64,000 nucleotides of DNA from a bacterium (GTDB lineage: Bacteria; UBA10199; JACPAL01; GCA-016699445), in assembly GCA_036274695.1 (NCBI GenBank), contig DASUFF010000141.1, positions 3,123-67,122 on the forward strand, in the 5' to 3' direction. Both the position numbers and the translations under genes were made by a program. Numbering within the stretch: the first letter of the stretch is position 1; each line of letters starts with the position of its first letter. Under the pieces are notes generated by a model, which worked only from the letters and a program-made list of their open reading frames with translations, was not told the DNA's origin and ran no database searches. Of this stretch, positions 3,991 through 40,210 are shown in pieces.

Positions 3991-3992
3991 GG

Positions 3993-6356: not shown

Positions 6357-7060
6357 GAAAGCTCCCCGGGTTTGAGCTTTTTCGCGTTGGTCTCCAAGGC
6401 CGTGATCCTTCCGTCGCCCAGGCGGACGACCCGGTCCGCCATGCCCGCGATGGCTGCGTTGTGGGTGATGATGACCGTCGTCGTGCCGAGATCTCGGTTC
6501 ACCCGCTGCAGGGCCTCCAGGACCATCTTGCCCGTCTGGTAATCGAGGGCCCCCGTCGGCTCGTCGCACAGAAGGACGTCCGGGCCCTTGGCGATGGCGC
6601 GGGCGATGGCCACGCGCTGTTGTTCGCCGCCGGAGAGCTGGGAGGGGAAGTGGCCGAGCCGTTCTTCGAGGCCCACGAGCTTGAGCGCTTCCCGCGCGTC
6701 CATCGGCTTCTCGGCGATTTCCGTAACCAACACCACGTTCTCCAGGGCGGTCAGGCTGGGGATCAGATTGTAGAATTGAAAAACGAAGCCGATGTGCTCG
6801 CGCCGGTAGCGGGTCAGCGCCTCTTCGCCCGCTTCGCGCAGGTTGTGGTCCCGGTAACGGACCTCGCCGGACGTGGGCGTGTCGAGCCCGCCCAAGATGT
6901 TCAGGAGCGTCGACTTGCCGCTGCCCGACGGGCCCAACAAGACGACGAACTCGCCGTCGTAGAGATCAAGATCGATGCCCCTGAGGGCGGGCACTTCCAC
7001 CTCGCCCATCGTGTACGTCTTCGTGAGGCCTTTGGCGGAAAAGACGGGCGTTCGATCCAT
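6350..7060 (-). CDS. ABC transporter ATP-binding protein (LolD/MacB-type)
   Basis: Walker [13 protein letters not shown] signature [14 protein letters not shown], Walker [13 protein letters not shown]. Confidence 0.9.
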
Positions 7061-7901: not shown

Positions 7902-8312
7902 CTATTTTACGAGCAGAATGGGGCAGGGCGCGAGGATGGCCACCTTGTAGCTGATCGTCCCCCAGTCCTGTCCCTTCCGCCCCGGTGTTACGGCGTGCGA
8001 ATTCATCACGATCAAATCCACCTTACGGGCCCGCGCGGTGCGCACGATGCCCTCCGTCCGGTGCCCCAGGTAAATTTCCTCCCGGACGGGCCGCCGCCGG
8101 ATCGCGTGCCCCAGCTTTTTCATGCGAATCCGCGCGTCCGTCAACAGCTCCGCGTAAAACTTCTTGAGCTCCCGGTTCGTCGGAAGACGGATTTCCTCCA
8201 CGATATGCAGGAGTGTGATCCGCGCGCGCGGCCCGCCCGCCTGAAGGGCCGCGGCGACGGCGCGCTTGTTCTTGGGGGTGAAGTCGACGGGGATCAGTAT
8301 GTTCCGGAACAT
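7902..8312 (-). CDS. Universal stress protein (single domain)
   Basis: MFRNILIPVDFTP...DLIVMNSHA.. fits the Usp fold signature. Confidence 0.7.
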   Translation of the reverse strand: MFRNILIPVDFTPKNKRAVAAALQAGGPRARITLLHIVEEIRLPTNRELKKFYAELLTDARIRMKKLGHAIRRRPVREEIYLGHRTEGIVRTARARKVDLIVMNSHAVTPGRKGQDWGTISYKVAILAPCPILLVK

Positions 8313-8373
8313 GGAGCCTCCTGGCGATTATGAGACACCAAAGGCGTTTTCTGCGGAATGACGAAAGTCAGGT

Positions 8374-8814
8374 TCAGGGCGGTGAAGTATACGCGTTCTC
8401 GCAGGGCGAATCGCAAAAGTAGGTCGCTCCCTTGAGGCAGCGGGCGGCGTCCTTCGTCAGCGCCAAGAGGCAATTGAGGGTCGGGCTTTTGACGATCGAG
8501 AAACTCTTGTCGTCGTCGCTCCAAATCCCCGGAAATTCCTTCCCGTCGCTGAGAATGACCACCGAGTTCCCGTCCTCGGCGACGGTGACGTCGATGTGGG
8601 AAGCGAGCTCGGCGCAATCCCCCTGGCCCAATTCATAGGGGCCGTTGGCGAAGGCGGGGTCGCGGGTGGTGTAGATCCCGAGCTGATCCGTTTCATAATC
8701 CTTGTTCGTTTTTATGAAACTGTCGGAGCACGCCCCGGTGGTGCCTTGCTCGTTGCAGCCGGCCAGGAACAGCGGGAGGGCCAGAGCGACGAGCGAAGGA
8801 AGTATTCTTTTCAA
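8374..8814 (-). CDS. Cys-rich lipoprotein, hypothetical
   Basis: Probable TTG start giving (M)KRILPSLVALALPLFLAGC.. with a lipobox LAGC; overlaps the upstream stop as TTGA. Confidence 0.5.
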   Translation of the reverse strand: MKRILPSLVALALPLFLAGCNEQGTTGACSDSFIKTNKDYETDQLGIYTTRDPAFANGPYELGQGDCAELASHIDVTVAEDGNSVVILSDGKEFPGIWSDDDKSFSIVKSPTLNCLLALTKDAARCLKGATYFCDSPCENAYTSPP

Positions 8815-9155
8815 CTGCAGAAGCCTTCGTTGAGCTCCACGTTTCGGAATTCCGTGTCGATGCAGCAGTCGGCCTCGCAGGTGACTCCGCCCTCCGTGAT
8901 GTTGTCGCAGACCTCTTCGGGCGTGATGGTGTAGTCGTCTTCGTTGAAGTAGAAGCAGTCGGCCTCCCATTCGCCGAATCCGAATCCGTCGCAGCCGTCC
9001 GTCACGCGCTTTTCGTAGGAGCACGCAAAATTTCCGTCGCCGCCGCCGCTGCTGCCTTCGCCGCCGCATCCCGCGGGCCCCGCGGAGTAAAACGCGGCCA
9101 GCGCCAGAAAGCCCGCCGCGAAACCGCCCAGGATCGTCGCCCTCTTTTTGCTCAT
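8811..9155 (-). CDS. Cys-rich secreted/lipoprotein, hypothetical
   Basis: MSKKRATILGGFAAGFLALAAFYSAGPAGCGG.. signal followed by 10+ Cys. Confidence 0.5.
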   Translation of the reverse strand: MSKKRATILGGFAAGFLALAAFYSAGPAGCGGEGSSGGGDGNFACSYEKRVTDGCDGFGFGEWEADCFYFNEDDYTITPEEVCDNITEGGVTCEADCCIDTEFRNVELNEGFCS

Positions 9156-9308
9156 AGGCCCTCCCCTTAAGATTTCGTTTAAGAACGTGATTTAGGTGCT
9201 ACTATGAAGGCCGCCGCTCGGAAACATGATTTTCGCCGGGATCGGTCCCCCCGCCCGCATGAGCAAAGTCATTGTCTTTTCGGGCGCCCGTTATAGATTC
9301 TGTTCGCC

Positions 9309-10466
9309 ATGAGACCATTCCTTGCGGTTTTTTTGGCGGTTTGTTGCGTCCTGGGCGCCGCCTCGTCGCCGGCCGAAGAGCTCGAACTGAAGTCCATGGC
9401 CTACCGGCCTTTGGCCCCGCTCATGGAATATAATTTCCAGACGCTTTTGGAGCTGCAGGAGTACGCGGCGTCACCCAAGCCCCTTCGCGATCCCGTCAAT
9501 TATTCCCGACTTTCAAGGCTCATCGACCGCCTGGCCGGAATCGCCCACGCCCTCCCCGAGATGACCGTCAAGGAGCGCCCGGGGCTTTCGGCCGTGGGGG
9601 CCGTCTACGAGGATTATCTTAACGATTTGAAAGCGGGACTGGCGTCCGGCGATTCCATCGCCCTCAGGAACCGGATCCGAACCGCCGCCGGATTCTGTTT
9701 CGAGTGCCATGCCAGCGCCTCGGGGACCGGTTTTTCGGATGCGCGAAAGCAGGCGGAGCGGCTCCGTCTCAGTCCCTTCCAGAAGGCGGAATTCCTGGCT
9801 GCGACCGGGCAATTCGAAGACGCGCTCAAGGCCTACAAGGGTCTCTTGGCGTCCGGCCCAGCGGAATCCGTGCCGTTCGTCGATCTTACGCGGGCCGTGA
9901 GGAACGCGCTGATCCTCGCCGTTCGGGTCAAACAGGACGCGGCCTTGGCCGAAGAGATCTTGGGTCTCGTGAAGAAGCACGAAGACCTCTCGGCCTCTCT
10001 CGGCGGGACCCTCGGGGCTTGGGAGAAGGATCTCGCAGCTTGGATGAAGGACAAGTCAGGCAAGGCCGTCAACGCGGGAGACCGGCTGGAGAAGGCAAGG
10101 AGCCTGGTCCGTCGGGCGGAGTCGCTCCAGACTTATCCGGCCGATCACGCCGGCGACTTGAGTTATTTAAGAGCCATCGCCTCCGCCCAGGAGGCCTTGG
10201 CCCTCGGTCCAAACGCCCTCCAAAAAGCGGAGGCCTTCTCGATCTTGGCCCAGGCCCATTTCATGCTCGAAGATCCTCTCCTCTGGAACTTGGACGGCTA
10301 TTATTGGGAGGCTTGCGTGGAGGCTGCGCCCCACACCCCGCAGGCCCGTGAATGCTTCCAACGCTGGGTTCAGGACATGTCCTTCCATTACACGGGGAGC
10401 TTTGGAAACCACCTGCCCGAGGAGGCTTCGAAAAAGCTGATCCGGCTCAAGGATTTTGCGAATTGA
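9309..10466 (+). CDS. Secreted helical protein with a single CXXCH haem-binding motif (putative c-type cytochrome), hypothetical
   Basis: Signal peptide MRPFLAVFLAVCCVLGAAS; one CFECH motif; otherwise no recognised domain. Confidence 0.55.
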   Translation: MRPFLAVFLAVCCVLGAASSPAEELELKSMAYRPLAPLMEYNFQTLLELQEYAASPKPLRDPVNYSRLSRLIDRLAGIAHALPEMTVKERPGLSAVGAVYEDYLNDLKAGLASGDSIALRNRIRTAAGFCFECHASASGTGFSDARKQAERLRLSPFQKAEFLAATGQFEDALKAYKGLLASGPAESVPFVDLTRAVRNALILAVRVKQDAALAEEILGLVKKHEDLSASLGGTLGAWEKDLAAWMKDKSGKAVNAGDRLEKARSLVRRAESLQTYPADHAGDLSYLRAIASAQEALALGPNALQKAEAFSILAQAHFMLEDPLLWNLDGYYWEACVEAAPHTPQARECFQRWVQDMSFHYTGSFGNHLPEEASKKLIRLKDFAN

Positions 10467-10549
10467 TCCGGCCGGTGGGAACCAAGCTCGGCGGCTCCAA
10501 ACAAGGCTTCTCCGGCCGTCGCTGGAGCCGCCGCCGGCGATCGGCGTTC

Positions 10550-10810
10550 CTAGAATTGCTGATGGGCGACGCGCTTGAGATCCTTCCACGATTTTTTCAG
10601 CTCGCCCCGGAAGGCGCGAAGGGCGCTTTTTCCGGCGCCTCTCAATTTCCTCAGATCCCTTTCTGCGGCGTTAGCGATGATGCCGAACTTTTGGACGTTC
10701 CTTTCGATCTCCTTGGCCGCCAGACGGTTGGCCTTCCGGATCTTGATCCGGAGCCGGCGCAGCTGCGCGTCCAACGATGGGGAATGCCCGTTTCCTCGTG
10801 CTCTTTTCAT
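10550..10810 (-). CDS. Hypothetical small basic helical protein
   Basis: Internal start MKRARGNGHS..; 86 aa, lies 84 bp after the ACP gene on the same strand. Confidence 0.3.
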   Translation of the reverse strand: MKRARGNGHSPSLDAQLRRLRIKIRKANRLAAKEIERNVQKFGIIANAAERDLRKLRGAGKSALRAFRGELKKSWKDLKRVAHQQF

Positions 10811-10893
10811 GAGACCCTCCTTGTTTTGTTGGGTTGCAGGATAGCGCGATACGAAAGCGATGAACATGACGAATATCAGGAACGGCGGGAGAA

Positions 10894-11154
10894 TCAGGCA
10901 GGCATTTTTTCCGCCAGGTAATCGACGATGCGATCGATCGTGTCGAGTCCGGCGTAATCCGCCTCGGGAACGTTGACCCCGAGGTCTTCGTAAAGGCGCG
11001 AGACGAAGCGCAAAAAATCCACCGAGTCGATCTCCGTTTGCTCGCGCAGCGAGAGATCGGGTCTTAGGGCCTTCGCGTCGATCTCGGGGGCGATGTCGCT
11101 TAAGTAAGAGAGGACCTTGGCGCGGATCTCGTCGGCGGTGAGGACAGGGCTCAT
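10894..11154 (-). CDS. Acyl carrier protein (phosphopantetheine-binding)
   Basis: 86 aa from internal M (MSPVLTADEIRAKVLSYLSDIAPEID..); Ser-containing motif EIDSVDFLRF; ATGA overlap with the E2 catalytic gene at 11151-11154. Confidence 0.75.
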   Translation of the reverse strand: MSPVLTADEIRAKVLSYLSDIAPEIDAKALRPDLSLREQTEIDSVDFLRFVSRLYEDLGVNVPEADYAGLDTIDRIVDYLAEKMPA

Positions 11155-11813
11155 CGGCCGGTCTCCAAGGTTTGAGGGGATTGGAGGAGCTTGGCCATAG
11201 CGTTCAGGAAGGCGGCGCCCTTCAGGCCGTCCGAGACGCGGTGGTCGGCGGCGAGCGTCGCCGAGACCACGCGGTGGGGCACCTCCCGAATCCGTCCGAA
11301 CCCCACCAGGGCCACTTGCGGAGGATAGATGAGGCCGAAGACGCGGTCGCATCCCTCGTCGCCCAAGCTCGTCACGGTGATCGTCGGGTCCGTCAGTTCC
11401 GAACCCCTCAACCGGCCCGATCGGACGCGGGTGACCAAGTCCGTGAGGGCGCGGGCGATCTCGGAAAGGGATTTTTCCTGGACGTCGTGAAGGGCGGGGG
11501 CGAGCAGGCCGCCGCCGCGGAGGGCGACGACGACGCCGGTATGGACCGATTCGGCGGGACGAAAGGCGCCGTCGACGTAGCGGCCGTTCATCTCGGGGAA
11601 AGACTTCGCCGCGAAGGCGAAGGCCTTGAGGAACAAGACCACCGGCAAAAGCCGGTCCGGCGGGGCGCGGCGGGCGTTCTCCTCGGCGAGCCAGTTCAAG
11701 GCCGCGTCCATGGGGACGGTCGTTTCGAGATAATAGTGGGGGATCTCGCGATGCGACTTCTCCATGGCGGCGGCTATGGCCCGGCGCATGTTGAGGGACT
11801 TGTCGTCCGTCAT
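11151..11813 (-). CDS. 2-oxoacid dehydrogenase E2 catalytic (acyltransferase) domain protein, no lipoyl domain
   Basis: [28 protein letters not shown]... and the catalytic motif DHRVSDG; its start overlaps the lipoyl-protein stop (TCATGA). Confidence 0.8.
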   Translation of the reverse strand: MTDDKSLNMRRAIAAAMEKSHREIPHYYLETTVPMDAALNWLAEENARRAPPDRLLPVVLFLKAFAFAAKSFPEMNGRYVDGAFRPAESVHTGVVVALRGGGLLAPALHDVQEKSLSEIARALTDLVTRVRSGRLRGSELTDPTITVTSLGDEGCDRVFGLIYPPQVALVGFGRIREVPHRVVSATLAADHRVSDGLKGAAFLNAMAKLLQSPQTLETGR

Positions 11814-12052
11814 GAATCCTCCCGGATCAAGGCGAGGAGCTTTCCCACCGGCAGCCAGTCTTCCCCCGGTTCGACCAAAATCTTGTCGACGACGCCGTTT
11901 CGAAAGACCTCGACGTCCACCGCCGACTTGCGCGTCTCGATCGTCGCGATGATGTCGCCCTTCTTCACGCGGTCGCCCGGCTTGACCTTCCACTCCACCA
12001 GCTTGGCGTCCTGCATGTCGGCGCCCAAGGACGGCAGCTTGAACTCATACAT
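11810..12052 (-). CDS. Stand-alone lipoyl (biotinyl/lipoyl attachment) domain protein
   Basis: 80 aa: [48 protein letters not shown].. with the conserved lipoyl-Lys context. Confidence 0.75.
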
Positions 12053-13058
12053 GGCGAAGGGCCTTTCTTGCGGCCGCGACGATCGTTTCGACCTGGGGAA
12101 GGGCCGCGTCCTCCAGGTGCTTGGCGTAAGGGAGCGGGACTTCGACGGTGCAGACTCTTTCCACCGGGGCCTTCAGGGAGGCGAAGGCGCCTTCCATGAT
12201 CCGCGCCGAGATCTCCGCCGAAAGGCTTCCGCTCCGCCAGCCTTCGTCGACCACCACCGCCCGCCCGGTCTTCCGGACGGTCTTCAAAATCGTCTCCGTG
12301 TCCAGGGGCCGCAGGACGCGAAGATCGACGACTTCCGCGGCGATGCCTTCCTTTTGAAGTTCGTCGGCGGCCGCGAGCGCCTTGAAGAGCATCGCGCCGT
12401 AGGCGACGAGGCTCAAGTCCTTTCCTTCGCGACGGACCGCGGCGCCGGTGATCGGCACGAGGCCCGCGTTCTCGGCGATCTCTCCGGTCCTATTGTAGAG
12501 GCTCGCGTGTTCGAAGATGAGCGTCGGGTCGGGGTCGAGGAGGGCCGAGCCGAGCATGCCGCGCGCGTCTTCCAAGACGGCGGGCGTCAAAATCTTCAGT
12601 CCCGGGATGTGTGCGTACCAGCCTTCGAGGCTGTGGGAATGCTGGGCGGCGAGCTGGCGTCCCGCGCCCGTGGCCATGCGGACGACGAGGGGCACGCTCA
12701 ACTGTCCGCCCGACATGTGGCGGACCGTCGCGGCCACATTCATGATCTGATCCAGACAGAGCAGGCTGAAATTGACCGTCATGACCTCGACGATGGGGCG
12801 CATGCCTCCAAGGGCCGCGCCGATGCCGGCGCCCACGAAGGCCGATTCCGAGAGCGGTGTGTCCCGGATCCGTTCGGGCCCGAATTCCTTCAAAAATCCC
12901 AGGCTCACGGCGTAACTCCCGCCGTAGCGGCCCACGTCCTCGCCCATGAGGAAGACGCGCGGGTCGCCCAAGAGGGCCTCCCGGTGCGCGGCGCGCAAGG
13001 CCTCGCGGTAGGTGGTGGCCGCTTTCTTAGCCGGTGATGTGGGGCGTGACGACGTCAC
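12045..13058 (-). CDS. 2-oxoacid (pyruvate/acetoin-type) dehydrogenase E1 component beta subunit
   Basis: ..[33 protein letters not shown].., with transketolase-like Pyr and C-terminal domains. Confidence 0.9.
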
Positions 13059-13998
13059 GGATCAAATCCTCCACGGGTTCGAGGGTGCCTTCCTCGGCGT
13101 ATTTCACGGATGCTTCGATCTCCGCGTCGATTTTCTTCTTCATAGCGGCCGACGCGGCCTCATCGAGCCAGCCCTGCATTTTGAGAAAAGTCTCGAAGGC
13201 CGGCAGCGGGTCTTTTTTCTTCCACTCCTCGATCTCTTTTTTATCCCGGTACAGGTCCGGGTCGAACATCGAGTGGGCGCGGAACCGGTAGGTGCGGCAT
13301 TCCAGAAAATACGGCCGCGCTTCTTCGCGGACGACGCGGATCGCCTTTTCCGCGGCCTCCGCCACGGCAAGCGGGTCCATGCCGTCCACCGTTGCCGCTT
13401 CCACATGATAGCTCCGCGCCTTGAGCAATAGATCGACTTCCGCCTCCGAGCGGTCGATGCGCGTGCCCATCGCGTAGAGATTGTTTTCGCAGAGAAAGAG
13501 GACGGGGAGCTCCCACAGAGCGGCCAAGTTCATCGATTCATGAAACTCGCCCTCCGCCATGGCGCCTTCGCCGAAGAAACAGGCGGTGACGTTTTTCCGC
13601 CCCTGCATCCGGTCGGCCAAGGCGAGTCCCGTGGAAAGGGGCAAGCCCCCGCCGACGATGGCGTTGCCGCCGTAGAAGCGGCGTCCGGCGTCGTAGAGAT
13701 GCATCGAGCCGCCGCGCCCCTTGCTGCAGCCTTCGATCTTGCCGAACATTTCCGCCATGACGGCGTCCATGGGCGTTCCGCGCACCAAGATGTGCCCGTG
13801 CTCGCGATAGGTGGCGACGATCGCGTCCTCCGGTCGGAGCTGGGGAATGATCGCGGAGGCGACCGCCTCTTCGCCGATATAAAGGTGGAGAAAACCGCGG
13901 ATCTTGGATTCCGTATAAAGCTCGGCGCAGCGTTCTTCGAACCGGCGAATTCGGGTCATCTGGCGGAAGATCTCCAGGCAGGAGGCGCGGCCCCTCAT
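13027..13998 (-). CDS. 2-oxoacid dehydrogenase E1 component alpha subunit (TPP-binding)
   Basis: 323 aa from internal M ([22 protein letters not shown]..); TPP motif [31 protein letters not shown]; start overlaps the ACS stop (ATGA at 13995-13998) and is preceded by GGAGG. The long upstream extension in the ORF track is shadow. Confidence 0.85.
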
Positions 13999-15725
13999 TT
14001 GGCCTCCTCGAGGGTGGAGAGGTCGCCTTCGGGGAGGCCCAGCTCGCGGGCCTTCAAGAGGCGTCTCAAGATCTTTCCGCTCTTGGTCTTCGGGAGGTCC
14101 TTGATGAAGTCGATCTCTTTGGGGGCGACGGCGGGCCCGAGACGGCGCCGTGCGAATCCCAAAAGGTCTTTCCGCAGGTCTTCGGTTTCGGCGACGCCGG
14201 GCTTGAGGCTCACGAAGGCCTTCACGACGGCGCCGATCACGGGATCGGGTTTGCCGATGACGCCGGCTTCGGAGACGGACGGATGTTCCATGAGGGCGCT
14301 CTCCACCTCGAAGGGCCCGATCAAATGGCCGGCCGATTTGATGACGTCGTCGGAGCGGCCGACGAACCAATAGTACCCGTCCGCATCCCGGCGCGCCAGG
14401 TCGCCGGTGAAGTACCAGCCGTCGGCGAAACATTTTCGATACCTCTCGTCCTCGTTCAAATACCCGCGGAACATGGAAGGCCATCCGGTTTTCAAGACCA
14501 GTTCGCCCTGGGCGCCCGCTTCTTCGACGATCTCGGCCCGCCCGTCTTCCGAGCGGCGCGCGACGGCGGCGGCGATGCCGGGCAGGGGACGGCCCATCGA
14601 GCCGGGGCGGATGTCCATGGACGGAAAGTTCGCGATCATGATCCCGCCGGTCTCCGTCTGCCACCAGTTGTCGTGGATCGGGAGCCCGAAGGCGTCGAGG
14701 CCCCACAGCACGGCCTCGGGGTTCAGGGGCTCGCCGACGCTCGCGATGAAACGGAGTTTCGAGAGATTTCGCCGTTTCGGCAGATCCGTCCCTCCGCGCA
14801 TCATCATGCGGACGGCCGTGGGAGCCGTGTACCAGACGGTGACGCCTCGTTCTTCGAGGACGCGGTACCAGCGGTCGGCGTCGAATTCGCCCTCGTCCAC
14901 GATCAACCTCACGCCGTTGGTGAGAGGAGAAATGATTCCGTAGGAGGTGCCGGTGACCCAGCCGGGATCGGCGGTGCACCAGAAGACGTCGTCGTCGTGA
15001 AAATCGAGGGCGAGCAGGCCGGTCGCGTGATGGGCGACGACGGCTTCGTGCACATGGACGGCGCCCTTGGGCCGTCCGGTCGTTCCGCTGGTGAAGTGGA
15101 GGAGGGCCATATCCTGCGGATCGGTCGCGGGGATGTCGAATTCGGGGGATGCGGCGGTCAGGAGTTTTTCCCAGGCGGGACCGGTCAGGACCACCTCGCG
15201 GAGGGCGGGGAGATCGCCGCGGATCGCCGCCACTTTGCGTTCGTAGAAGGTCTCCGTCGTGACGAGGATCTTTCCCTCGCCCAGTTGAAGGCGCGTCTTC
15301 AAAGGCTCCGGGCCGAAAGCCGAGAAAAGAGGACAGAACACGGAGCCGTTTTTCAGGGCGCCCAGGAAGGCGATATAAAGTTCCGGCGTCCGGCCGAGGA
15401 GGGTGAAGACGCGGTCGCCTTTTCCGATGCCGAGATTTTTTAGGACGTCGGCGAATCGGTTGGATGCTTGATCGAGGGCCTTGTAGGTCCAATCTTCGAC
15501 GCGTCCGTCTTTTCTTAAGAAAATGATCGCGGTTCGGTCGGCTTTGGGGCCTCGAGCGTGGCGGACGACGGCTTCGTGGGCGATGTTGAGTCCGCGGCCT
15601 CCGGGAAGTCCGTCCAGAAGCGTCCTTGCCTTGTCCCAGGAAAAGTCGCGGACCGATTCTTCATAGGAAAAGAGATTGGGCCGGATTCTCCACGTGCAGG
15701 GATCCTTGAGAATCGGCCTGGTCAT
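13995..15725 (-). CDS. AMP-forming acyl-CoA synthetase (acetyl-CoA synthetase family)
   Basis: 576 aa from internal M (MTRPILKDP..); motifs [10 protein letters not shown], YGxTE-like, and the [23 protein letters not shown] hinge. Confidence 0.85.
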
Positions 15726-17008
15726 GGCCCGGACTTTCCGGCCGTCAGATAGAGGCGGAACCATTCCGCCGCCAGTCGTGCGGCTTCCTCCAACTTGCCC
15801 GGCTCCTCGAAGAGGTGCGTGGCGTTGGGGACGACGGCCAAGTCCTTGACGCCGCGCAGGGCGGCATAAGCGCTCTCGTTCATTTCGATCACGGCCTCGT
15901 CCCATCCGCCGACGATCAGCAGCGTCGCGGCCTTTACGCGCGAAAGCATCGGCATCGCCAGGTCCGGCCGGCCGCCCCGGGAGACGACGGCGCGGATCTT
16001 GTGGCCCATCTCGGCCGCGGCGATCAAGGCGGCCGCGGCGCCGGTCGAGGCTCCGAAGTAGCCGATCGGCAGACCGGCGACCTCCGGGCGCTTTTCCAGC
16101 CACTCCGTCGCCGTCGCGAGACGGCGGGCGAGCAGCGGGATGTCGAAACGGTTTTCATACGTGTCGTCTTCCGCGGGGGTCAGGAGATCGAAGAGGAGGG
16201 TCGCGAAACCCGCCTTGTGCAGGATGTCCGCGACGTACCGGTTTCGCGGGCTCAAGCGGCTGCTCCCGCTTCCGTGGGCGAAGAGGATGATGCCGTGCGC
16301 CTTCGGAGGGACCGTCAAGTTTCCGGGGAGGAGATGGCCGTCGACGGGGATGGCGACTTCCGGGTCTTCAGCGTCGCCGGAGGCGGCCTCTTTCAGGAGG
16401 GCGACGACCTCCTCGTCTTCCACTTGCCCGAAATCCTCGAAGAACTGGCCGACGGCGTAGAAGTCCCGCGGCGTCTCCAGGCAGACCACCTGATCGGCGT
16501 AGGGGCGGATCTTATCGACGTTCGACGGGGGAGCGACGGCCGCGGCGGCGATGAGGCGCGCCGGGTTTTTCTCGCGGACCGACTTCAGGGCCGCGATCAT
16601 CGTCGAGCCCGTGGCGATGCCGTCGTCGACCACGATGACGATCCGGCCCTTGGGGTCGACGGGGGGGCGGGCCTCGGTATAGCGCCGGCGCCGTTCCCGC
16701 AGGACCTCCAGCTGCTCGCGCTTCTCCCGATCGAGATAATCGCGGGAAACACCGAGCGCGCGGGCGTAATCGGTCAGGAAGGTGTGGCCGTGTTCGTCGA
16801 TCGAGCCGATCGCCAGCTCGGGTTGCATCGGGGCGCGGAGCTTCCGGACGAGCACCACGTCGGCCTCGCCCCCCAAGGCGTTCGCGATGACCCGCGCCAT
16901 GGGCACGGCCCCCCGGGGGATCGCCAGGACAAGCGGGTTTTTCCCGCGGTACCGGATGAGCTCGCGGGCGAGCAAGGAAGCGGCCTGTTCGCGGTTTTGA
17001 AACGTCAT
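15722..17008 (-). CDS. Phosphoribosyltransferase-domain / alpha-beta hydrolase (dienelactone hydrolase-like) fusion protein
   Basis: N-terminal PRTase motif [15 protein letters not shown]; C-terminal HGSGSS... hydrolase fold. Confidence 0.7.
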
Positions 17009-17247
17009 AAAGGGCCTTCGCGGCCTCCCTTAAGGCCGAGCAGGGACAGGATCAGAATGACGGCGTACATGACGAATCCGTAAACGCACACCGGCGGGCC
17101 GGGGATCGGGAAGGCCGCTTCGCCGCAGGAAACGCCTTCCATCCGAGACGCCGGACCGAAGAGTTCCTGGTATGAGAGATACCCCGAAAATAGGAGTCCG
17201 GCCACAGATACGCCCGCGATCGCTTTTAAAGTCGTTCGTATTTTCAT
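17005..17247 (-). CDS. Small membrane protein (80 aa, 2 TM, Cys pair), hypothetical
   Basis: MKIRTTLKAIAGVSVAGLLFSGYLSY...CGEAAFPIPGPPVCVYGFVMYAVILILSLLGL; ATGA overlaps on both sides (17005-17008 and 17244-17247). Confidence 0.5.
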   Translation of the reverse strand: MKIRTTLKAIAGVSVAGLLFSGYLSYQELFGPASRMEGVSCGEAAFPIPGPPVCVYGFVMYAVILILSLLGLKGGREGPL

Positions 17248-18203
17248 ACTTGAGTCTCCGTAAGGAATTTTCTCCGGTAGCCGGCGGCCGTTTTCGGACA
17301 ATGGCTCAACACGGCGCAGGGGGCATACCGGACGACTTGTTCCGCGACGCCCCCCATGAGAAAGCGCGCCAGGCCGGAACGGCTGTGGGTCGGGATGAGG
17401 ATTAAGTCCGATTTCATGTCGGCGGCCGCGCGGCAGATCTGGTCGGCCGCCGGGCCCATGGGCAGGCAGTAGGTCATTTCCAGCTTGGGGTGGGCCTCTT
17501 TTAACGCCTCGAGTTTCTCCGCGGCCTCTTTTTCCCGCGGGGAGATGCCGTCGACCAAGTCCTCGGGCAAGGGGTAGGGGGGAGGACGGACGGCGTGGGG
17601 CACGGGGGTGATGGCGTGAATCAGGCAGAACTGCAAAGGGAGGGCGGCGGCGAGCGTCTCCGCCAATGCGAACGTCTCCTCCTCGGGGCCCGCGAAGTCC
17701 ACCGGCAGCAGCACCGAACGGGGAGGCCACGCGGACGACCGGCGCGTCACCAGCACGGGCGACGGCGAGTGGCGGACGAGCTTTTCCGCCACGCTCCCCA
17801 TGAGAACGTGAGGGAGGTCGCTTACGCCCGCGGTTCCCATCACCACCAGATCCGGCGCGTCTTTTTCGACAGCCGATAAAAGCGCCGCCACCGGTTTTCC
17901 TTCGAGCACTTCGATCTCGACACCGGCCGCGAGGGTCTCGCACCGATCGGGTACGACGGCCTTGAAAGCCGCTTCGACCTGCGTCCGGATCCTCAAATCC
18001 GCTTCGTCGACCGTCCAGGAGTCCCCCTTCTCGGGCGACCACTCGAGGGTATGAACGACCTTGAGCCGCGAGCCGCAGAGGGCCGAAAGCCCGGCCGCCC
18101 ATTCCAAGGCCATGAAGCTCGTGCGCGAGAGGTCGCAAAGGCTGAGGATTCTTTCGAACACAATTCCGATTTTAGGAAATCGGAGGAAAAACGGCCATGA
18201 CAT
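17244..18203 (-). CDS. Universal stress protein, tandem domains
   Basis: Two Usp halves (..LVVMGTAGVSDLPHVLMGSVAE.. and ..ILIPTHSRSGLARFLMGGVAE..). The start is uncertain: ATG at 18203, or GTG at ~18161 giving the more Usp-like MFERILSL. Confidence 0.7.
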   Translation of the reverse strand: MSWPFFLRFPKIGIVFERILSLCDLSRTSFMALEWAAGLSALCGSRLKVVHTLEWSPEKGDSWTVDEADLRIRTQVEAAFKAVVPDRCETLAAGVEIEVLEGKPVAALLSAVEKDAPDLVVMGTAGVSDLPHVLMGSVAEKLVRHSPSPVLVTRRSSAWPPRSVLLPVDFAGPEEETFALAETLAAALPLQFCLIHAITPVPHAVRPPPYPLPEDLVDGISPREKEAAEKLEALKEAHPKLEMTYCLPMGPAADQICRAAADMKSDLILIPTHSRSGLARFLMGGVAEQVVRYAPCAVLSHCPKTAAGYRRKFLTETQV

Positions 18204-18261
18204 CGGCGAGACGGCGGCCTGATCTTCGTCAGGTTCGCGGTTTTCCGCGAGAGGAGTTCTT

Positions 18262-19044
18262 TTACGCGCCCGCCCTCGCGATGGTCTTCTTCAGGAGCAG
18301 GGAGAGGCCGAAGAGGAAGGCGTTGACCAGGATCATCGAAGGTCCCGCGGGGAAACCCGTTTGGCGATGCACCGACAGGCCGATCGCGCAGCTGGAGGCC
18401 CCGATGAAGAGGCTTCCGTAGGCGTATTGCCGCAGATTTCGGCTCACGTTTCTCGAGGCGGCGGCTGGGATGATCATCAACGCGCCGACCAAGAGCGTCC
18501 CCGTGACCTTCACTCCCAGCGAGACCACGGCCGCGATGGCCAGGAGGTAGAGCAGGTTGTATTTGCGGCCGGTGATTCCCTGGACGTGGGCCAGGTCCTC
18601 CGAAATGTTCAAGAGCATCATGCCCGGGTAGATGGATCGGACAAGAAGAAAAACGCCGAGAGAGATTAAGATGGAAAATACCGCCGCCGGCGGCGAGACC
18701 TTCGAGACGTCGCCAATCAAGCTTTCCAGCAATTCGGGCTCGGGGACGATCAGGAAACCGATGGCCAAGCTGGTGACGAAGGCGATGCCGATCAAGGTTT
18801 CCATCCCCAACGAGGTTTTTCCGCCCAACTGCCAGACGAGGAGGATTCCCAGGAGGACGAACAAAAAGGCGCCGAGGCTCGGGTCGAAATGGAAGGCCAG
18901 CCCCAACCCCAGCCCGGGCAGGGCGACGTGGCCGAGCGCGTCCCCCGCGAGCGCCATCCGCTTGCTGATCATGAGGGAGCCCAAGTAGCCGCCTACCGCC
19001 CCGACGGCGATACTGACGGCCAGGCTGGAAAGCGAGTCATCCAT
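18262..19044 (-). CDS. znuB: Metal (Zn/Mn) ABC transporter permease, ABC-3 family
   Basis: 260 aa polytopic membrane protein typical of ZnuB/TroC-like permeases. Confidence 0.75.
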   Translation of the reverse strand: MDDSLSSLAVSIAVGAVGGYLGSLMISKRMALAGDALGHVALPGLGLGLAFHFDPSLGAFLFVLLGILLVWQLGGKTSLGMETLIGIAFVTSLAIGFLIVPEPELLESLIGDVSKVSPPAAVFSILISLGVFLLVRSIYPGMMLLNISEDLAHVQGITGRKYNLLYLLAIAAVVSLGVKVTGTLLVGALMIIPAAASRNVSRNLRQYAYGSLFIGASSCAIGLSVHRQTGFPAGPSMILVNAFLFGLSLLLKKTIARAGA

Positions 19045-19726
19045 GGTCGTGTAGGAAATACTTGGTCCCCTTTCCGAAGACCTCCTGCAGATTGGCGGGC
19101 GTGAGGATCTCCGTCGGGGGGCCGAAGCAGATCATTTTTTTGTTGAGGCAGAGGATGTTCGTCGCCTGACGGTAGACGGCCGTCAGCTCGTGCGTGACCA
19201 GAAGGACCGTGAGCCGTCTCTCTTTCTGAACTTTTTGCAAAAGTTCGTAGACGGTCTCCTCGCCGCCGACGTCGATGCCGGCCATCGGCTCGTCGAAGAG
19301 GAGGGCATTGGGATCGCCTGCCAAGGCCCAGGCGATCAACACCCTTTGAAACTGGCCGGAGGAAATCTTCCCGATCTCCCTTTTTAGAAAAGAGGGATCT
19401 TCGATTCCGACCTGTTGCAAGACCTTCGCCGCTTCCGCCGGGCCGATGCGCTTCAATCCGAAAAATTCTTGCACGGTCACGGGCAAGTCCTTGTCGAGAG
19501 GCACCCGCTGCGGCACGTAGCCGATCACGACGTCCTCACTCCAAGTCACCTCTCCCCGATGCGGAAGAAGTCCGGCCAGTGCCTTCAAGAGGATCGTTTT
19601 GCCGGCCCCGTTCGGCCCCAAAATGACGAGTGTCTGGCCGCGGTCGACGCTGAAATCGATTCCTTCCAGAATCGGTTCGCCGTCCAAGGAGACGCTTAGG
19701 TTTTTGACCGTTAGAATTTTTCCCAT
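19037..19726 (-). CDS. znuC: Metal ABC transporter ATP-binding protein (ZnuC-like)
   Basis: C-terminal 229 aa of ORF 19037..20944 (MGKILTVKNLSVSLDGEPIL..GPNGAGKT..LSSGQFQRVLIA..LLFDEP); alternative start at 19738. The upstream 400 aa of that ORF is shadow. Confidence 0.8.
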   Translation of the reverse strand: MGKILTVKNLSVSLDGEPILEGIDFSVDRGQTLVILGPNGAGKTILLKALAGLLPHRGEVTWSEDVVIGYVPQRVPLDKDLPVTVQEFFGLKRIGPAEAAKVLQQVGIEDPSFLKREIGKISSGQFQRVLIAWALAGDPNALLFDEPMAGIDVGGEETVYELLQKVQKERRLTVLLVTHELTAVYRQATNILCLNKKMICFGPPTEILTPANLQEVFGKGTKYFLHDHG

Positions 19727-19747
19727 GCGCCGTGCCATAATAGCACA

Positions 19748-21199
19748 ATGAGGATCGAAGCCTTCAAAAACTCCGTGATCGAAACTCACATCTCGTGGAT
19801 CCTCCTGACCGGCCCGTTCGCCTACAAGATCAAGAAGCCGGTGAACTTGGGGTTCTGCGACTTCACCACCTTGGAGAAGCGTAAATTCTATTGCGAGGAG
19901 GAGTTGAGGCTCAATCGAAGGCTTGCGCCGGAGCTTTACGTAGAGATCGTTCCCGTCACGGGGACGGAAGACGCGCCGCGCCTGGGCGGGGACGGGCCGG
20001 TCATCGACTATGCGGTGAAGATGGTCCAATTCGACCAGGCCTGCCGCCTCGACCGCGTGCTCTCCGCCGGCGGCCTTTTGCCGGAGCACATGGATCAATT
20101 CGCGTCCCAGCTCGCGGCGTTTCACGGCGCCGTTCCGGCGGCCGCGCCGGAATCGCCTTACGGAAACGCGCAGTCGGTCGCCCGCACGGTCCTGGAAACG
20201 CTCGGGGATTTGGATTCTTTGGAAAATGCCTCCCTCGTCGCCGACCTTCGTTCGTGGTGCGGGTCGGAAGCCGTCCGCCTGAAGGAGGTTTTCGAGGCCC
20301 GGAAGGACGGCGGCTTCGTCCGCGAGTGCCACGGCGACGCGCATCTGGCGAATGCGGCTCTGATCGACGGACGGATCCGGATCTTCGACGCCATCGACTT
20401 CAATCCGGACCTGCGGTGGATCGACGTGATGAGCGAGACCGCCTTCGCCGCGATGGATTTGCAGGACCGCGGACGGCCGGACCTGGCCCGCCGTTTTTTG
20501 AACGCCTACCTGGAGCGCACCGGCGACTACGAAGGCCTGCGCGCCTTCCGCTTCTACGAAGTCTACCGCGCCCAAGTGCGCGCCAAGGTGGCGGCCATCC
20601 GCCTGTCGCAAGAGGGCCTCGCGCCCGCGGAGCGCGCGGAAATCCGGGCCGAGGCGGAGGGGTATCTGGCCCTCGCCTTGAAACTCACGCGTCCCGAGCC
20701 GCCCAAGCTGTCCATCACCTTCGGCGTGTCCGGCTCCGGAAAGACCCACGGGACGCAGAGGATTTTGGAGACGGAAGGGGCCGTCCGACTCCGCACCGAC
20801 GTCGAGCGCAAGCGCCTCTTCGGGATCGATCCCTTCGAGGGCACGCCGCCCTCGCGAAAAGAGGAAGTCTACGGAGCCGACGCCTCGCGGCGGGTCTACC
20901 GGCGGCTTTTGGATTTGAGCTGGATGCTTCTGTCCGAAGGTCATTCCCTCATCGTCGACGGAACTTTCCTAAAGAGGAGCGAGAGGGACGAGTTCCGCGC
21001 GCTTGCGGCCGCTCTGGCGGTCCCTTTCCGCATTCTATCCTTCGAGGCGCCGGACGACGTCCTGAAGCGGCGGGTTTCGGCACGCCGGGCGGCCGGCGCC
21101 GACGCTTCCGAGGCCGATTGGGAGATCGTCGAAAGGCAGAAGCGGCGGATGGAGCCTTTGACGCCCGACGAAAAGGGCGCGATGGAAGAAGGGGTATGA
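19748..21199 (+). CDS. Bifunctional APH-like kinase (protein-kinase fold) / P-loop (AAA-type) kinase fusion protein
   Basis: N-terminal Brenner motif HGDAHLANA and an IFDAIDF context; C-terminal Walker A GVSGSGKT. Confidence 0.75.
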   Translation: MRIEAFKNSVIETHISWILLTGPFAYKIKKPVNLGFCDFTTLEKRKFYCEEELRLNRRLAPELYVEIVPVTGTEDAPRLGGDGPVIDYAVKMVQFDQACRLDRVLSAGGLLPEHMDQFASQLAAFHGAVPAAAPESPYGNAQSVARTVLETLGDLDSLENASLVADLRSWCGSEAVRLKEVFEARKDGGFVRECHGDAHLANAALIDGRIRIFDAIDFNPDLRWIDVMSETAFAAMDLQDRGRPDLARRFLNAYLERTGDYEGLRAFRFYEVYRAQVRAKVAAIRLSQEGLAPAERAEIRAEAEGYLALALKLTRPEPPKLSITFGVSGSGKTHGTQRILETEGAVRLRTDVERKRLFGIDPFEGTPPSRKEEVYGADASRRVYRRLLDLSWMLLSEGHSLIVDGTFLKRSERDEFRALAAALAVPFRILSFEAPDDVLKRRVSARRAAGADASEADWEIVERQKRRMEPLTPDEKGAMEEGV

Positions 21200-21876
21200 A
21201 CTTCCTGATGGCGTTCTTGCTCCTCGTCAAACGGTATTTCCGGTACGAAACGGTCGGACTGGAGCATATTCCCAAACGCGGGCCGGCCCTGATCGTCATG
21301 AACCACGGCGTCCTGCCGTTCCATTCCTTCGCCCTGGTCTACGAGATTTACAAGAAGACGGGCGTCCTGCCGAGGAGCCTCGCGGCGGAGTTTCTTTTCA
21401 AAATTCCCGTCGTCAAGGACCTGTTCGAAAAGGGCGGGGCCGTCTGCGCTTCTCCCGAAAACGCCGAAAAGCTCCTGCGCGCCGGCCATCTCGTGACGGT
21501 CTCCCCCGGCGGGATCTACGAGGGCCTGGTCACGCGGCCGGACGCGGTTTGCCTTCCCTGGGAGAGCCATTTCGGATTCGCTCAGGTCGCCTGCAAGCTG
21601 GGCGTGCCGATCGTTCCGACCTACTGCCGGGGATTGAACAAGGCCTACGTCACGTCGCAGAGGTTTTTGGAGGAACGGACCTGGCTCCTCAAGCGGATCC
21701 GGTTTTCGATTCCGTTCTTTTTCGGGTTGGGGCTCTTTCCCTTCCCCGTCAAACTCACGCACGTGATCGGCAGCCCTATTTCCACGAAGCCCCGGAAGGG
21801 CGAGCCTCCGGATCGACGGGTTTGGCGGGTCCATGACCGGACGATCGCGGCGGTGACGCGTCTGGCGGAAGGATGA
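21196..21876 (+). CDS. Lysophospholipid/1-acyl-glycerol-3-phosphate acyltransferase-like protein (PlsC family)
   Basis: MNFLMAFLLLVKRYFRYETVGLEHIPKRGPALIVMNHGVLP.. ; ATGA overlap with the upstream gene at 21196-21199. Confidence 0.65.
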   Translation: MNFLMAFLLLVKRYFRYETVGLEHIPKRGPALIVMNHGVLPFHSFALVYEIYKKTGVLPRSLAAEFLFKIPVVKDLFEKGGAVCASPENAEKLLRAGHLVTVSPGGIYEGLVTRPDAVCLPWESHFGFAQVACKLGVPIVPTYCRGLNKAYVTSQRFLEERTWLLKRIRFSIPFFFGLGLFPFPVKLTHVIGSPISTKPRKGEPPDRRVWRVHDRTIAAVTRLAEG

Positions 21877-28819: not shown

Positions 28820-28954
28820 GAAACACCTCTTTCGCCCGGAGACGTAGCGCGGAAGAGGACCGGCCCCCATGACCCGCCGCAGGAGTCTTTATGATTTTTA
28901 TCAGCTAACCTGCTGAAATTGTTGAATTATTTTGTTCCATGTCGCGGAAAATTT

Positions 28955-37402: not shown

Positions 37403-37434
37403 GGCAGGTTTCCTGCGTGATGCCGGTGCTCTCC

Positions 37435-38393: not shown

Positions 38394-38408
38394 AACCCGG
38401 ACCGTGAA

Positions 38409-40181: not shown

Positions 40182-40210
40182 GGGGCCGATTCTATACCGG
40201 ATTTTTCTTT

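Follow-up and report, generated by a model that had tools for sequence, protein, structure and literature searches.

We describe a five-gene unit, encoding an AcsA-type acetate-activating enzyme, the alpha and beta subunits of a pyruvate dehydrogenase (PDH)-type E1, an E2 acyltransferase and a distinctive acyl carrier protein (ACP), that is widely conserved and apparently unstudied; we found no published description of an acsA-E1 alpha-E1 beta-E2-acp module. The unit was identified in a 64,000-nt stretch of bacterial DNA, hereafter the window. We put at roughly 0.45 the probability that the window carries a hypoxia/dormancy-type stress-island operon whose core is an acetyl-handling module with acetyl-S-ACP as carrier. 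Judged by gene content and context, the module probably loads acetyl onto its own ACP and not onto CoA alone.

As originally predicted, nine intact ORFs run from 18203 down to 10894 on the minus strand, and Pfam matches over the curated cut-off were obtained for eight of them. They are given below with their flanking genes, in order of descending coordinate.

~19037-19800, minus strand: ABC ATPase gene (ORF), overlapping the ABC-3 permease gene
18262..19044, minus strand: ABC-3-type transporter permease (ORF), ending 58 nt upstream of Usp
17244..18203, minus strand: tandem universal stress protein (Usp), 319 aa, first of the overlapping series (Pfam Usp, 145 bits, two stretches)
17005..17247, minus strand: 80-aa ORF, predicted two-helix membrane protein with two cysteines, ATGA overlap at both ends
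15722..17008, minus strand: PRTase-DLH fusion of a phosphoribosyltransferase and a dienelactone-hydrolase-like alpha/beta hydrolase, 428 aa (Pfam)
13995..15725, minus strand: AcsA-type AMP-forming acetate-activating enzyme, 576 aa, first core gene (NCBIfam NF003313)
13027..13998, minus strand: E1 alpha, 2-oxoacid dehydrogenase of PDH type, 323 aa (Pfam E1_dh, 285 bits)
12045..13058, minus strand: E1 beta, 337 aa, GTG start (Pfam Transket_pyr and Transketolase_C)
11810..12052, minus strand: free-standing lipoyl carrier protein, 80 aa, lipoyl lysine in ETRKS (Pfam Biotin_lipoyl, 62.8 bits)
11151..11813, minus strand: E2 acyltransferase catalytic domain alone, 220 aa (Pfam 2-oxoacid_dh, 168 bits)
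10894..11154, minus strand: ACP, 86 aa, last core gene, Ser44 in the LREQTEIDSVDFL motif (Pfam PP-binding, 33.8 bits)
10550..10810, minus strand: possible tenth gene, 86-aa basic helix-rich protein, family unassigned (AAGGAGG ribosome-binding site)

All eight operon junctions are overlaps: six of 4 nt (ATGA, as shared by the Usp stop and the following start), one of 8 nt and one of 32 nt. The original prediction had every junction as a 4-nt ATGA overlap; the six that it listed do read ATGA, but the E1 beta/lipoyl junction (12045-12052, ATGTATGA), missing from its list, overlaps by 8 nt. The 32-nt E1 alpha/E1 beta overlap was reproduced. GTG at 13058 is the sole start codon before the conserved part of E1 beta, and gene callers place an overlap of 32 nt in one related locus (L002) and of 29 nt in another (L005). 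In a rough gene set of the window, four of the other same-strand neighboring pairs (n = 30) overlap, none by 4 nt, and the junction coupling of the operon is greater than this background. Reading frames are unchanged in relatives. An independent assembly (L001; Logan SRR25158403) encodes proteins 100% identical from E1 beta through ACP by tblastn, with gene calls that agree over this interval.

The transcription unit may be larger than nine genes. The 86-aa ORF downstream begins approximately 84 nt after ACP, has no Pfam match and is also called as a gene in L001. Upstream of Usp, the ABC-3 permease and ABC ATPase genes may be co-transcribed with the operon; L005 has an ABC_tran and ABC-3 pair too, approximately 5 kb upstream of Acs with other genes between.

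The five-gene unit was recovered in more than 100 fetched loci from many phyla, spanning Alpha-, Beta- and Gammaproteobacteria, Thermodesulfobacteriota, Actinomycetota, Gemmatimonadota, Acidobacteriota, Chloroflexota and UBA10199-like MAGs. It often adjoins Usp, Hsp20 or similar stress genes, or sits on plasmids, which carry several of the copies. Gene order was counted in 80-locus samples of best matches, whose members are phylogenetically interdependent. Where enough upstream sequence was available in these best matches (128 loci), E2 immediately precedes ACP in 105, comprising 55 out of 76 from genomes and 50 out of 52 from metagenomes. The ACP linkage is thus strongly conserved, and a 4-nt overlap is the commonest E2/ACP junction (60/115). 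AcsA is likewise embedded, being present upstream of E1/E2/ACP in 37/40 and 14/15 full copies from the best-match samples. An E3 gene is linked in one of the 178 sequences examined. With AcsA and ACP as fixed members and E3 unlinked in the other 177, the view that this is not a standard pdh or aco operon is borne out.

The nine genes do not behave as a unit: among 54 large loci, only 9 contain PRTase and only 3 have a Usp gene within 10 kb of ACP. Usp, the 80-aa ORF and the PRTase-hydrolase are lineage-specific neighbors outside the conserved core. PRTase-DLH (Pfam Pribosyltran, 80.6 bits; DLH, 21.5 bits, barely over the cut-off of 21) is a recurrent yet non-obligate companion, with homologues adjoining the cassette in L005/L006 (75% identity), L011, L029, L031, L063 and others. 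The position of PRTase and Usp is variable, both being downstream of ACP in L005. The Pfam Usp domain does not start until residue 16, which leaves the assigned Usp start (18203) in doubt. The 80-aa ORF is the least certain gene, since its VKOR match is below threshold (E = 1e-4; 22.9 bits versus a Pfam cut-off of 27.5), its GC3 is low (0.65 versus 0.77-0.88), and no homologue was found in 177 related loci.

Family assignments of AcsA and both E1 subunits exceed curated NCBIfam cut-offs. AcsA scores 876 bits against a cut-off of 729 for NF003313 (acetate--CoA ligase), E1 alpha 436 bits against 393.85 for TIGR03182 (PDH_E1_alph_y) and E1 beta 399 bits against 321 for NF006667. The closest PDB entry to AcsA is 9g79, a 572-aa Acs (E = 3e-162), and the motifs WWQTETGG and PKTKSGK are intact. 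The E2 of the window is split. Its 80-aa lipoyl protein corresponds to a detached E2 N-terminal domain, and its 220-aa catalytic protein lacks both the lipoyl and the peripheral-subunit-binding (E1/E3-binding) domain (PSBD). The latter has the active-site motif DHRVSDG, is closest in the PDB to 3b8k, the human PDC E2 core (E = 5e-23), and is approximately 60% identical to full-length E2s of 340-385 aa bearing PF02817. An identical split occurs in L002, L004 and L005-L007, and a fused lipoyl-PSBD-catalytic E2 in most other relatives. The E2 catalytic motifs, lipoyl lysine and ACP serine are all intact in the window. In Desulfotalea, ACP is followed by a lipoate-protein ligase (LplA) gene, an argument for use of the lipoyl arm. 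The glycine cleavage H protein is also a free-standing lipoyl carrier, but the likeness is one of concept only; the 80-aa protein is homologous to E2 lipoyl domains, with E1 and E2 of a 2-oxoacid dehydrogenase as presumed partners and not the P, T and L proteins.

These E1 scores, together with the lipoyl lysine, the E2 DHRxxDG motif and the resemblance to the human PDC E2 core, recall the PDH complex with heterotetrameric E1 (pdhA-pdhB-pdhC-lpd) of Alphaproteobacteria, Gram-positives and mitochondria. The operon differs from that complex in its unlinked E3, in its fixed AcsA and ACP and, in the window, in its divided E2 without a PSBD.

The ACP family comprises at least 7990 clusters at 90% identity. 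Across 120 members, 16 positions are invariant, S44 included, and the median pI is 4.6; the family is distinct and, like working carrier proteins, acidic. The ACP is not the AcpP of fatty-acid synthesis, as it falls under the cut-off of every NCBIfam ACP model and fab genes are absent nearby.

The same ACP family also occurs apart from E1 and E2. In 15 genome loci without either, it lies directly downstream of acsA with a 4-nt overlap, and a Pat-like GNAT follows the ACP or is fused to it; the top NCBIfam match of the GNAT beside the acs-acp pair is 'acetyltransferase Pat'. These acs-acp-gnat loci are all from Betaproteobacteria, mostly of Rhodocyclales type, and may derive from few evolutionary events. 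Among full cassettes, an ACP-GNAT or a nearby GNAT occurs in some (L045, L140, L136, L108, L169 and Rhodococcus pDK1). E2 is therefore not the sole partner of the ACP and perhaps not its main one, and AcsA is at least as likely a partner. In the window, no GNAT, phosphopantetheinyl transferase or E3 is encoded, and we therefore assume that the consumer and helper enzymes are encoded elsewhere.

AcsA-type enzymes are classic GNAT targets, as in B. subtilis AcuA/AcsA and mycobacterial Pat/Acs. The AcsA of the window is a short Acs of the B. subtilis type (acsA-acuABC), and it retains the PKTxSGK lysine of the systems in which a GNAT regulates Acs, Salmonella Pat/Acs among them. We know of no ACP in such systems; here, an ACP holds the regulatory place of the GNAT, which is fused or adjacent in relatives and missing from the window. 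A plain CoA-dependent complex is fully compatible with these sequences, because AcsA passes the acetate--CoA ligase equivalog and E1 and E2 are PDH-like. The operon could then be an ordinary auxiliary PDH and acetyl-CoA synthetase that maintain the acetyl-CoA supply in hypoxia or stress, with an E3 borrowed from another complex. In that case the ACP would not accept acyl groups from E2 but would regulate or dock to AcsA, for instance by recruiting a Pat-type acetyltransferase to it or by sensing CoA status. The family scores of AcsA and E1 fit this reading, as do the PGAP gene names, the normal E2 architecture of most family members and the persistence of the ACP with AcsA alone, fused to a Pat-like GNAT. 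The E3/E1-binding domain kept in most relatives' E2 counts against acetyl-ACP as well. However, an ACP regulating AcsA leaves unexplained why in more than 100 loci it is placed right after E2, translationally coupled, and not beside acsA. It would also have no need of an invariant phosphopantetheine serine, and the GNAT is missing from most cassette loci. We regard this explanation as possible but on the unlikely side.

Two further explanations give the acetyl group another fate. Under the original prediction, E2 would acylate the ACP and so provide the starter unit from which, for example, a lipid or secondary metabolite is built. Such transfer has a biochemical precedent in QncN/QncL/QncM, from QncL to QncM (PMC6335953). 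This system (quinocarcin biosynthesis; also SclQ1-4 of scleric acid) resembles an E1/E2 pair and loads a C2 unit onto an ACP. Its parts, as described, have counterparts in the window: an E1-like enzyme of the thiamine-diphosphate kind, domains of lipoyl and E2 acyltransferase type, and a small ACP next to them. In the original Qnc work, the acyl group reportedly passes from lipoyl to ACP. By this analogy, E2-to-ACP transfer is plausible here, where E2 precedes the ACP. In favor of a starter unit, the opposite strand encodes a DAGAT-like acyltransferase some 3 kb upstream of the operon. The starter-unit destination is very improbable. Qnc draws on ketose phosphates, has a transketolase-like E1 and feeds an NRPS, whereas the window has a PDH-type E1, AcsA within the unit and a stress-survival context. 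Conserved genes for PKS, NRPS, ketosynthase, FAS, lipid synthesis or phosphopantetheinyl transferase are absent within 10 kb in 80 best-match genome loci. The genes after the ACP vary (PRTase, Usp, LplA, regulators), the ACP recurs, apart from E2, with AcsA and a protein acetyltransferase, and the operon is surrounded by stress genes. The window encodes four Usp proteins, Hsp20, a class II-type ribonucleotide reductase (RNR), a P-type ATPase, NnrS and a Crp/Fnr regulator. Under the other explanation, the module would conserve energy from pyruvate to acetate during non-growing survival: the PDH parts would load ACP or CoA, and AcsA would run in reverse (acetyl-thioester + AMP + PPi to acetate + ATP), with the linked phosphoribosyltransferase as a possible source of AMP and PPi. 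AMP-forming Acs of Syntrophus aciditrophicus reportedly runs in this direction, the PDH parts never occur without AcsA, the module repeatedly has a PRTase as neighbor, and the setting is of hypoxia/dormancy type. We nevertheless consider it improbable, as the reverse reaction is thermodynamically unfavorable unless AMP and PPi are high, PRTase is found in a minority of loci, no gene for the electron sink that PDH requires is present here, and acs-acp-gnat operons and ACP::GNAT fusions would be unexplained.

With several Usp genes, Hsp20/alpha-crystallin, class II-type RNR, cation ATPase and oxygen-type regulators, the surroundings recall the mycobacterial DosR dormancy regulon and the lxa low-oxygen locus of Burkholderia cenocepacia. 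The Usp, Hsp20/alpha-crystallin, RNR and cation ATPase classes are listed as common to those two systems, and the main text of the lxa paper holds no mention that we found of an acs-pdh-acp module (PMC3721108). Regulators in the window are Crp/Fnr and two-component proteins, and the likeness to a stress island is one of gene content. In Rhodococcus pDK1, a GAF sensor kinase and response regulator, resembling a DosS/DosR pair, and a Usp adjoin the cassette.

In the acetyl-ACP reading that we prefer, pyruvate would be decarboxylated by the PDH-type E1 and the lipoyl protein acetylated. The E2 catalytic domain, AcsA (from acetate and ATP) or both would then acetylate the 4'-phosphopantetheine thiol of the ACP, giving acetyl-S-ACP in place of, or alongside, acetylation of free CoA. 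The recurring partners of the ACP, namely E2, AcsA and GNAT, normally use the pantetheine thiol of CoA, as expected if the ACP arm replaces CoA. The dihydrolipoyl group would be reoxidized by an E3 from elsewhere. We infer that the ACP would thus be a private acetyl carrier common to both acetyl-producing enzymes, and that acetyl-ACP would likely serve as a donor or sensor for Pat-type protein acetyltransferases encoded outside the window.

Reading of the minus strand from 18203 to 10894 gave nine intact ORFs, with exactly the coordinates originally predicted, and clear family matches were obtained for eight of them (Pfam, NCBIfam). Usp is a tandem protein, and the PRTase is fused to a dienelactone-hydrolase-like domain. 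Neighboring ORFs overlap at all eight junctions. The 4-nt ATGA overlap that the original prediction ascribed to every junction is present at the six it listed but not throughout: E1 alpha and E1 beta overlap by 32 nt, as had been stated, and the E1 beta/lipoyl junction (12045-12052), missing from the earlier list, is an 8-nt overlap (ATGTATGA). E1 beta begins with a GTG at 13058, the sole possible start before the conserved N-terminus. Elsewhere in the window, using a rough gene set, overlaps occur in 4 of 30 same-strand neighbor pairs and 4-nt overlaps in 0 of 30, so the coupling is a property of the operon and not genome-wide. The reading frames were also checked against an independent Logan assembly (SRR25158403; locus L001), in which the gene calls are unchanged and the proteins from E1 beta to ACP are 100% identical to those of the window (tblastn).

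The operon may contain more than nine genes. On the upstream side, the last of the ABC transporter genes stops 58 nt before Usp, and on the downstream side, ~84 nt beyond the ACP, there is an 86-aa ORF preceded by a strong ribosome-binding site. Scanning 9800-20200 for promoters and terminators returned counts no better than those of shuffled sequence. Convergent with the operon end is a 385-aa protein (9309-10466, plus strand) with a signal-peptide-like N-terminus, a CFECH motif (CxxCH, haem c) and no Pfam match. One ORF appears to be a doubtful member of the operon:

17005-17247, minus strand: 80-aa membrane ORF between Usp and PRTase; sub-threshold VKOR match (E 1e-4)

Its alignment is confined to the N-terminal half of the VKOR profile (TM1, cysteine loop, TM2), its codon signal is weaker, and homologues were absent from 177 related loci. 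Should it be a genuine gene, one could imagine, as pure speculation, a thiol-quinone connection to the reoxidation of dihydrolipoyl groups.

The thiamine-diphosphate E1 pair characteristic of a PDH complex is present. E1 alpha matches E1_dh (285 bits) and passes the PDH equivalog TIGR03182 (436 bits; cut-off 393.85), and E1 beta carries Transket_pyr and Transketolase_C domains and exceeds the cut-off of NF006667 (399 bits; cut-off 321). The separate 80-aa lipoyl protein (Biotin_lipoyl, 62.8 bits) has a predicted lipoylatable lysine in ETRKS, while the 220-aa E2 catalytic domain (2-oxoacid_dh, 168 bits) has the active-site motif DHRVSDG and aligns to PDB 3b8k (E 5e-23). The peripheral-subunit-binding domain (PSBD; PF02817), which tethers E1/E3 to E2 in complexes, was absent from both the lipoyl and the catalytic protein by Pfam; most fused relatives with ~60% identity retain it. 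In the window and its closest relatives, E2 is divided between two proteins: the lipoyl part stands free, and the catalytic part begins immediately with the core fold, with no linker. Since this split was seen in several independent assemblies, it is not a frameshift artefact, and such a system would operate with two free carrier proteins, one lipoyl and one phosphopantetheinyl. The operon lacks E3, as originally reported: no E3 disulfide motif was found across the 64-kb window, and one was located near the cassette in 1 of 178 sequences.

The AMP-forming acyl-CoA synthetase said to be embedded in the operon is assigned from sequence to the AcsA type. It matches NF003313 (acetate--CoA ligase) over its full length (876 bits; cut-off 729), contains the ANL motifs WWQTETGG and PKTKSGK, and is of the short type represented by the B. 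subtilis enzyme, with 9g79 as its best match in the PDB (E 3e-162). AcsA of this type is regulated by GNAT acetylation of the PKTxSGK lysine. A second, shorter AMP-binding enzyme of 487 aa is encoded at 49874-51337 on the plus strand.

The dedicated ACP (86 aa) matches PF00550 with 33.8 bits (cut-off 20.8), with its serine in EIDSVDFL. This residue, Ser44, is invariant in 120 family members and is the predicted phosphopantetheine site. Across those 120 proteins, Ser44 is one of sixteen invariant positions, others being in the LR.Q..DS.D.L motif around it, and the family is acidic (median pI 4.6). Together, the acidity and the invariant positions point to a functional carrier that its partners constrain strongly. 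The family comprises at least 7990 clusters at 90% identity, and comparison with the PDB returned generic ACPs only. A housekeeping fatty-acid AcpP was considered and rejected: the window's ACP falls below the cut-off of every NCBIfam ACP model (best model 34 bits vs 66; TIGR00517 23 vs 70), and its neighbors are E2, AcsA or GNAT (Pat-like acetyltransferase) genes, with no fab genes among them. The GO label "fatty acid biosynthetic process" that annotation pipelines assign to it would need correcting even if the enzymes act in the ordinary way. A role as octanoyl or lipoyl donor for E2 lipoylation was also discarded; the ACP is kept in loci without any lipoyl domain, the AcsA is of the acetate type, and Desulfotalea has a lipoate-protein ligase for this task.

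The run Acs-E1 alpha-E1 beta-lipoyl-E2-ACP recurs in relatives at 81%, 65% and 58% E2 identity (L002, L004 and L005-L007; L-numbers denote related loci from genomes and metagenomes). In more distant bacteria (L008, L011), E2 is the usual fused lipoyl-PSBD-catalytic protein, and Rhodococcus ABRD24 has an ACP of the family 5 kb away. A search with an alignment of seven ACPs detected the family in no fewer than 586 species genomes and no fewer than 544 metagenome contigs. Neighborhoods were compared in 80-locus samples, which were limited to the best matches, contain many Betaproteobacteria and lack phylogenetic independence; genes were called by simple ORF and tblastn rules. The proposed ACP linkage is borne out in relatives, as E2 lies directly upstream of the ACP in 55 of 76 genome loci and 50 of 52 metagenome loci with at least 800 nt upstream in these best-match samples. 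Where enough upstream sequence was available, AcsA was also present in 37/40 genome and 14/15 metagenome E2-bearing loci of the same samples. E2 and ACP most often overlap by 4 nt (60 of 115 loci, an approximate figure from a rough automated measure). Other neighbors vary: PRTase occurs in 9 and Usp in 3 of 54 large loci, and in L005 both lie downstream of the ACP, not upstream of Acs. The conserved unit is therefore five genes (acsA, E1 alpha, E1 beta, E2 and ACP), and the nine-gene set originally put forward as the unit is a layout peculiar to the window's lineage.

In Burkholderia savannae, Rhodococcus sp. DK17, Desulfotalea psychrophila, Methylocystis rosea and Sinorhizobium fredii, annotated cassettes are carried by plasmids or mobile regions, with Hsp20, Usp, FtsH, nicotinate PRTase, and a GAF sensor kinase plus response regulator among the genes nearby. 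In D. psychrophila (L095:9321-10331), a strict anaerobe, the cassette is carried on a large conjugative plasmid, and the gene that immediately follows the ACP encodes a lipoate-protein ligase. It is unusual for a sulfate reducer to have a PDH-type complex on a plasmid.

The ACP also occurs without E1 and E2. It directly follows AcsA in 15 of 76 genome loci, all from Betaproteobacteria and mostly of Rhodocyclales type (Accumulibacter, Dechloromonas, Azonexus and others), and in 6 more genome loci it neighbors neither E2 nor AcsA. In every E1/E2-less locus identified (20/80), a GNAT follows within ~50 nt of the ACP, either as a separate gene, as in the acs-acp-gnat operons, or joined to the C-terminus of the ACP in a single ORF of ~265-290 aa.

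Linked and fused ACP and GNAT genes in related loci
L027 (Accumulibacter), 8220-9989: acs, overlapping acp by 4 nt
L027, 9986-10252: acp
L027, 10256-10783: gnat
L073, 3753-4544: ACP::GNAT fusion
L064, 9992-10792: ACP::GNAT fusion
L015, 9932-10801: ACP::GNAT fusion
L059, 9917-10786: ACP::GNAT fusion
L081, 2197-2994: ACP::GNAT fusion

The best NCBIfam match of the GNAT is the mycobacterial protein acetyltransferase Pat. Full cassettes with an ACP-GNAT or a GNAT close by were also found (L045, L140, L136, L108, L169 and Rhodococcus pDK1). Taking all its contexts together, the ACP family recurs with three partners, namely E2, AcsA and a Pat-like GNAT, each of which normally works on CoA at its pantetheine thiol. 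We know of no description of a protein acetyltransferase in which an ACP replaces the regulatory domain, and the GNAT link suggests a protein-acetylation circuit. Downstream of the L081 fusion (3631-6591) is a second E2/E1 set with 31-43% identity to the window proteins and a different gene order, which may be another kind of ACP-linked 2-oxoacid dehydrogenase.

Pfam scans of the operon's surroundings in the window identified three more Usp genes as well as Hsp20, NnrS, a P-type ATPase and a ribonucleotide reductase (RNR) of class II type. Regulatory genes in these surroundings encode a Crp/Fnr regulator, a histidine kinase with a PAS domain, and response regulators.

Stress-related genes in the window
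28955-32038: P-type ATPase, near the second stress cluster
36182-37657: NnrS, near the second stress cluster
37911-38393, plus strand: Hsp20
38409-40181, minus strand: class II-type ribonucleotide reductase
40211-41080, minus strand: tandem Usp

The second stress cluster (37911-41080; Hsp20, RNR, tandem Usp) resembles DosR/lxa gene sets. Usp, Hsp20/alpha-crystallin, RNR and a cation ATPase are listed as common to the DosR regulon of mycobacteria and the lxa locus of Burkholderia (PMC3721108), and by gene content the window has a corresponding cluster of genes for Usp, Hsp20, a class II RNR, a cation ATPase and an oxygen-responsive regulator. Identity with the low-oxygen lxa locus of B. cenocepacia was rejected: the paper gives Usp, Hsp20, RNR, ATPase and PHA genes, and a term search of its main text showed no acs-pdh-acp module (PMC3721108), so the likeness is kept as a comparison of context only. 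FNR/Crp-like palindromes (TTGAT-N4-ATCAA, up to 2 mismatches) number 30 in the window vs 11.8 +/- 3.0 in shuffled sequence; most are inside genes, and the whole-window scan found none clearly placed before the operon. An intergenic copy (28891-28904) adjoins the P-type ATPase gene. Homologues of the Pat-like GNAT, CBS, S30AE, DUF3175 and LplA were absent from the 64-kb window, and general Pfam scans of the window's neighbors revealed no phosphopantetheinyl transferase. About 3 kb upstream of the operon start, the opposite strand encodes a 226-aa DAGAT/PlsC-like acyltransferase (~21200-21876, plus strand; DAGAT 55 bits, Acyltransferase 42 bits), which could relate to storage-lipid synthesis in dormancy.

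By their family matches, the parts are of known kinds (PDH-type E1/E2, AcsA and a PP-binding carrier), and their assembly matches no described system that we found. Full-text searches of open-access papers and preprints returned no description of the module, although such absence is not proof. It is a widespread, automatically annotated and uncharacterized module with a real link to a carrier protein. Our preferred reading, which we hold tentatively (probability about 0.45), is that the five-gene core is an acetyl-handling module that places acetyl from pyruvate and/or acetate on the dedicated ACP. Acetyl from pyruvate would pass through E1, the lipoyl protein and E2 onto the ACP, and acetyl from acetate would be placed there by AcsA. 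The model draws on the invariant serine, the tight coupling to E2, the persistence of the ACP with AcsA alone, the fusion to an acetyl-using GNAT, and the precedent of E2-to-ACP transfer from QncL to QncM (PMC6335953). Both the enzyme that loads the ACP and the use made of acetyl-ACP are what we infer.

The operon shares its E1 pair, lipoyl lysine and DHRxxDG E2 with the PDH complex. A complete PDH complex also has the PSBD, which the operon lacks, and any E3 would be encoded outside the 64-kb window. These parts would suit an ordinary, CoA-dependent auxiliary PDH plus Acs in which the ACP is a regulatory partner of AcsA, and the loci with ACP directly after AcsA would be compatible with that role. 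We regard this explanation as less likely than the acetyl-ACP reading. An ATP-conserving route from pyruvate to acetate, with AcsA running in reverse, seems improbable. Qnc/Nap-type C2 loading likewise sets an E2 acyltransferase and a lipoyl domain beside a dedicated ACP, an arrangement in keeping with the lipid or secondary-metabolite starter unit of the original prediction. In Qnc/Nap-type systems, however, a transketolase-like E1 acts on ketose phosphates, whereas E1 alpha of the window is a PDH equivalog and transketolase models score far below their cut-offs; those systems also have a linked NRPS/PKS consumer and phosphopantetheinyl transferase, and no such cluster is conserved within 10 kb in the best-match 80 genome loci, nor did the Pfam scans of the window's neighbors reveal one. 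Condensing enzymes and assembly lines are not linked in those loci over the same distance, which makes a starter unit highly improbable. A secondary-metabolite cluster was rejected for lack of conserved PKS, NRPS or ketosynthase neighbors in the same 80 loci.

Acetyl transfer to the ACP could be taken further, in a proposal that we consider speculative and unlikely as a whole. Acetyl-S-ACP might form a separate acetyl currency in non-growing, oxygen-starved bacteria, with E1/lipoyl/E2 and AcsA charging the ACP. The ACP, joined to the acetyltransferase itself in some genomes, would supply acetyl independently of CoA to lysine acetyltransferases of the Pat type, or act as their sensor, and these would in turn control AcsA and stress proteins. 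Carriers in the window's lineage would then be wholly mobile, with neither the lipoyl protein nor the ACP tethered. A bolder version also has AcsA run in reverse on PRTase-derived AMP and PPi, with ATP gained from pyruvate.

If the ACP truly takes acetyl from a PDH-type E2 and/or AcsA, this would be the first primary-metabolism 2-oxoacid dehydrogenase to feed a carrier protein rather than CoA. It would also reveal an unrecognized acetyl-ACP pool tied to protein acetylation and dormancy, and give a function to a module now automatically annotated as "PDH + acetate--CoA ligase + fatty-acid ACP". Because the islands that carry the module resemble the mycobacterial DosR regulon, it could bear on how aerobes outlast anoxia.
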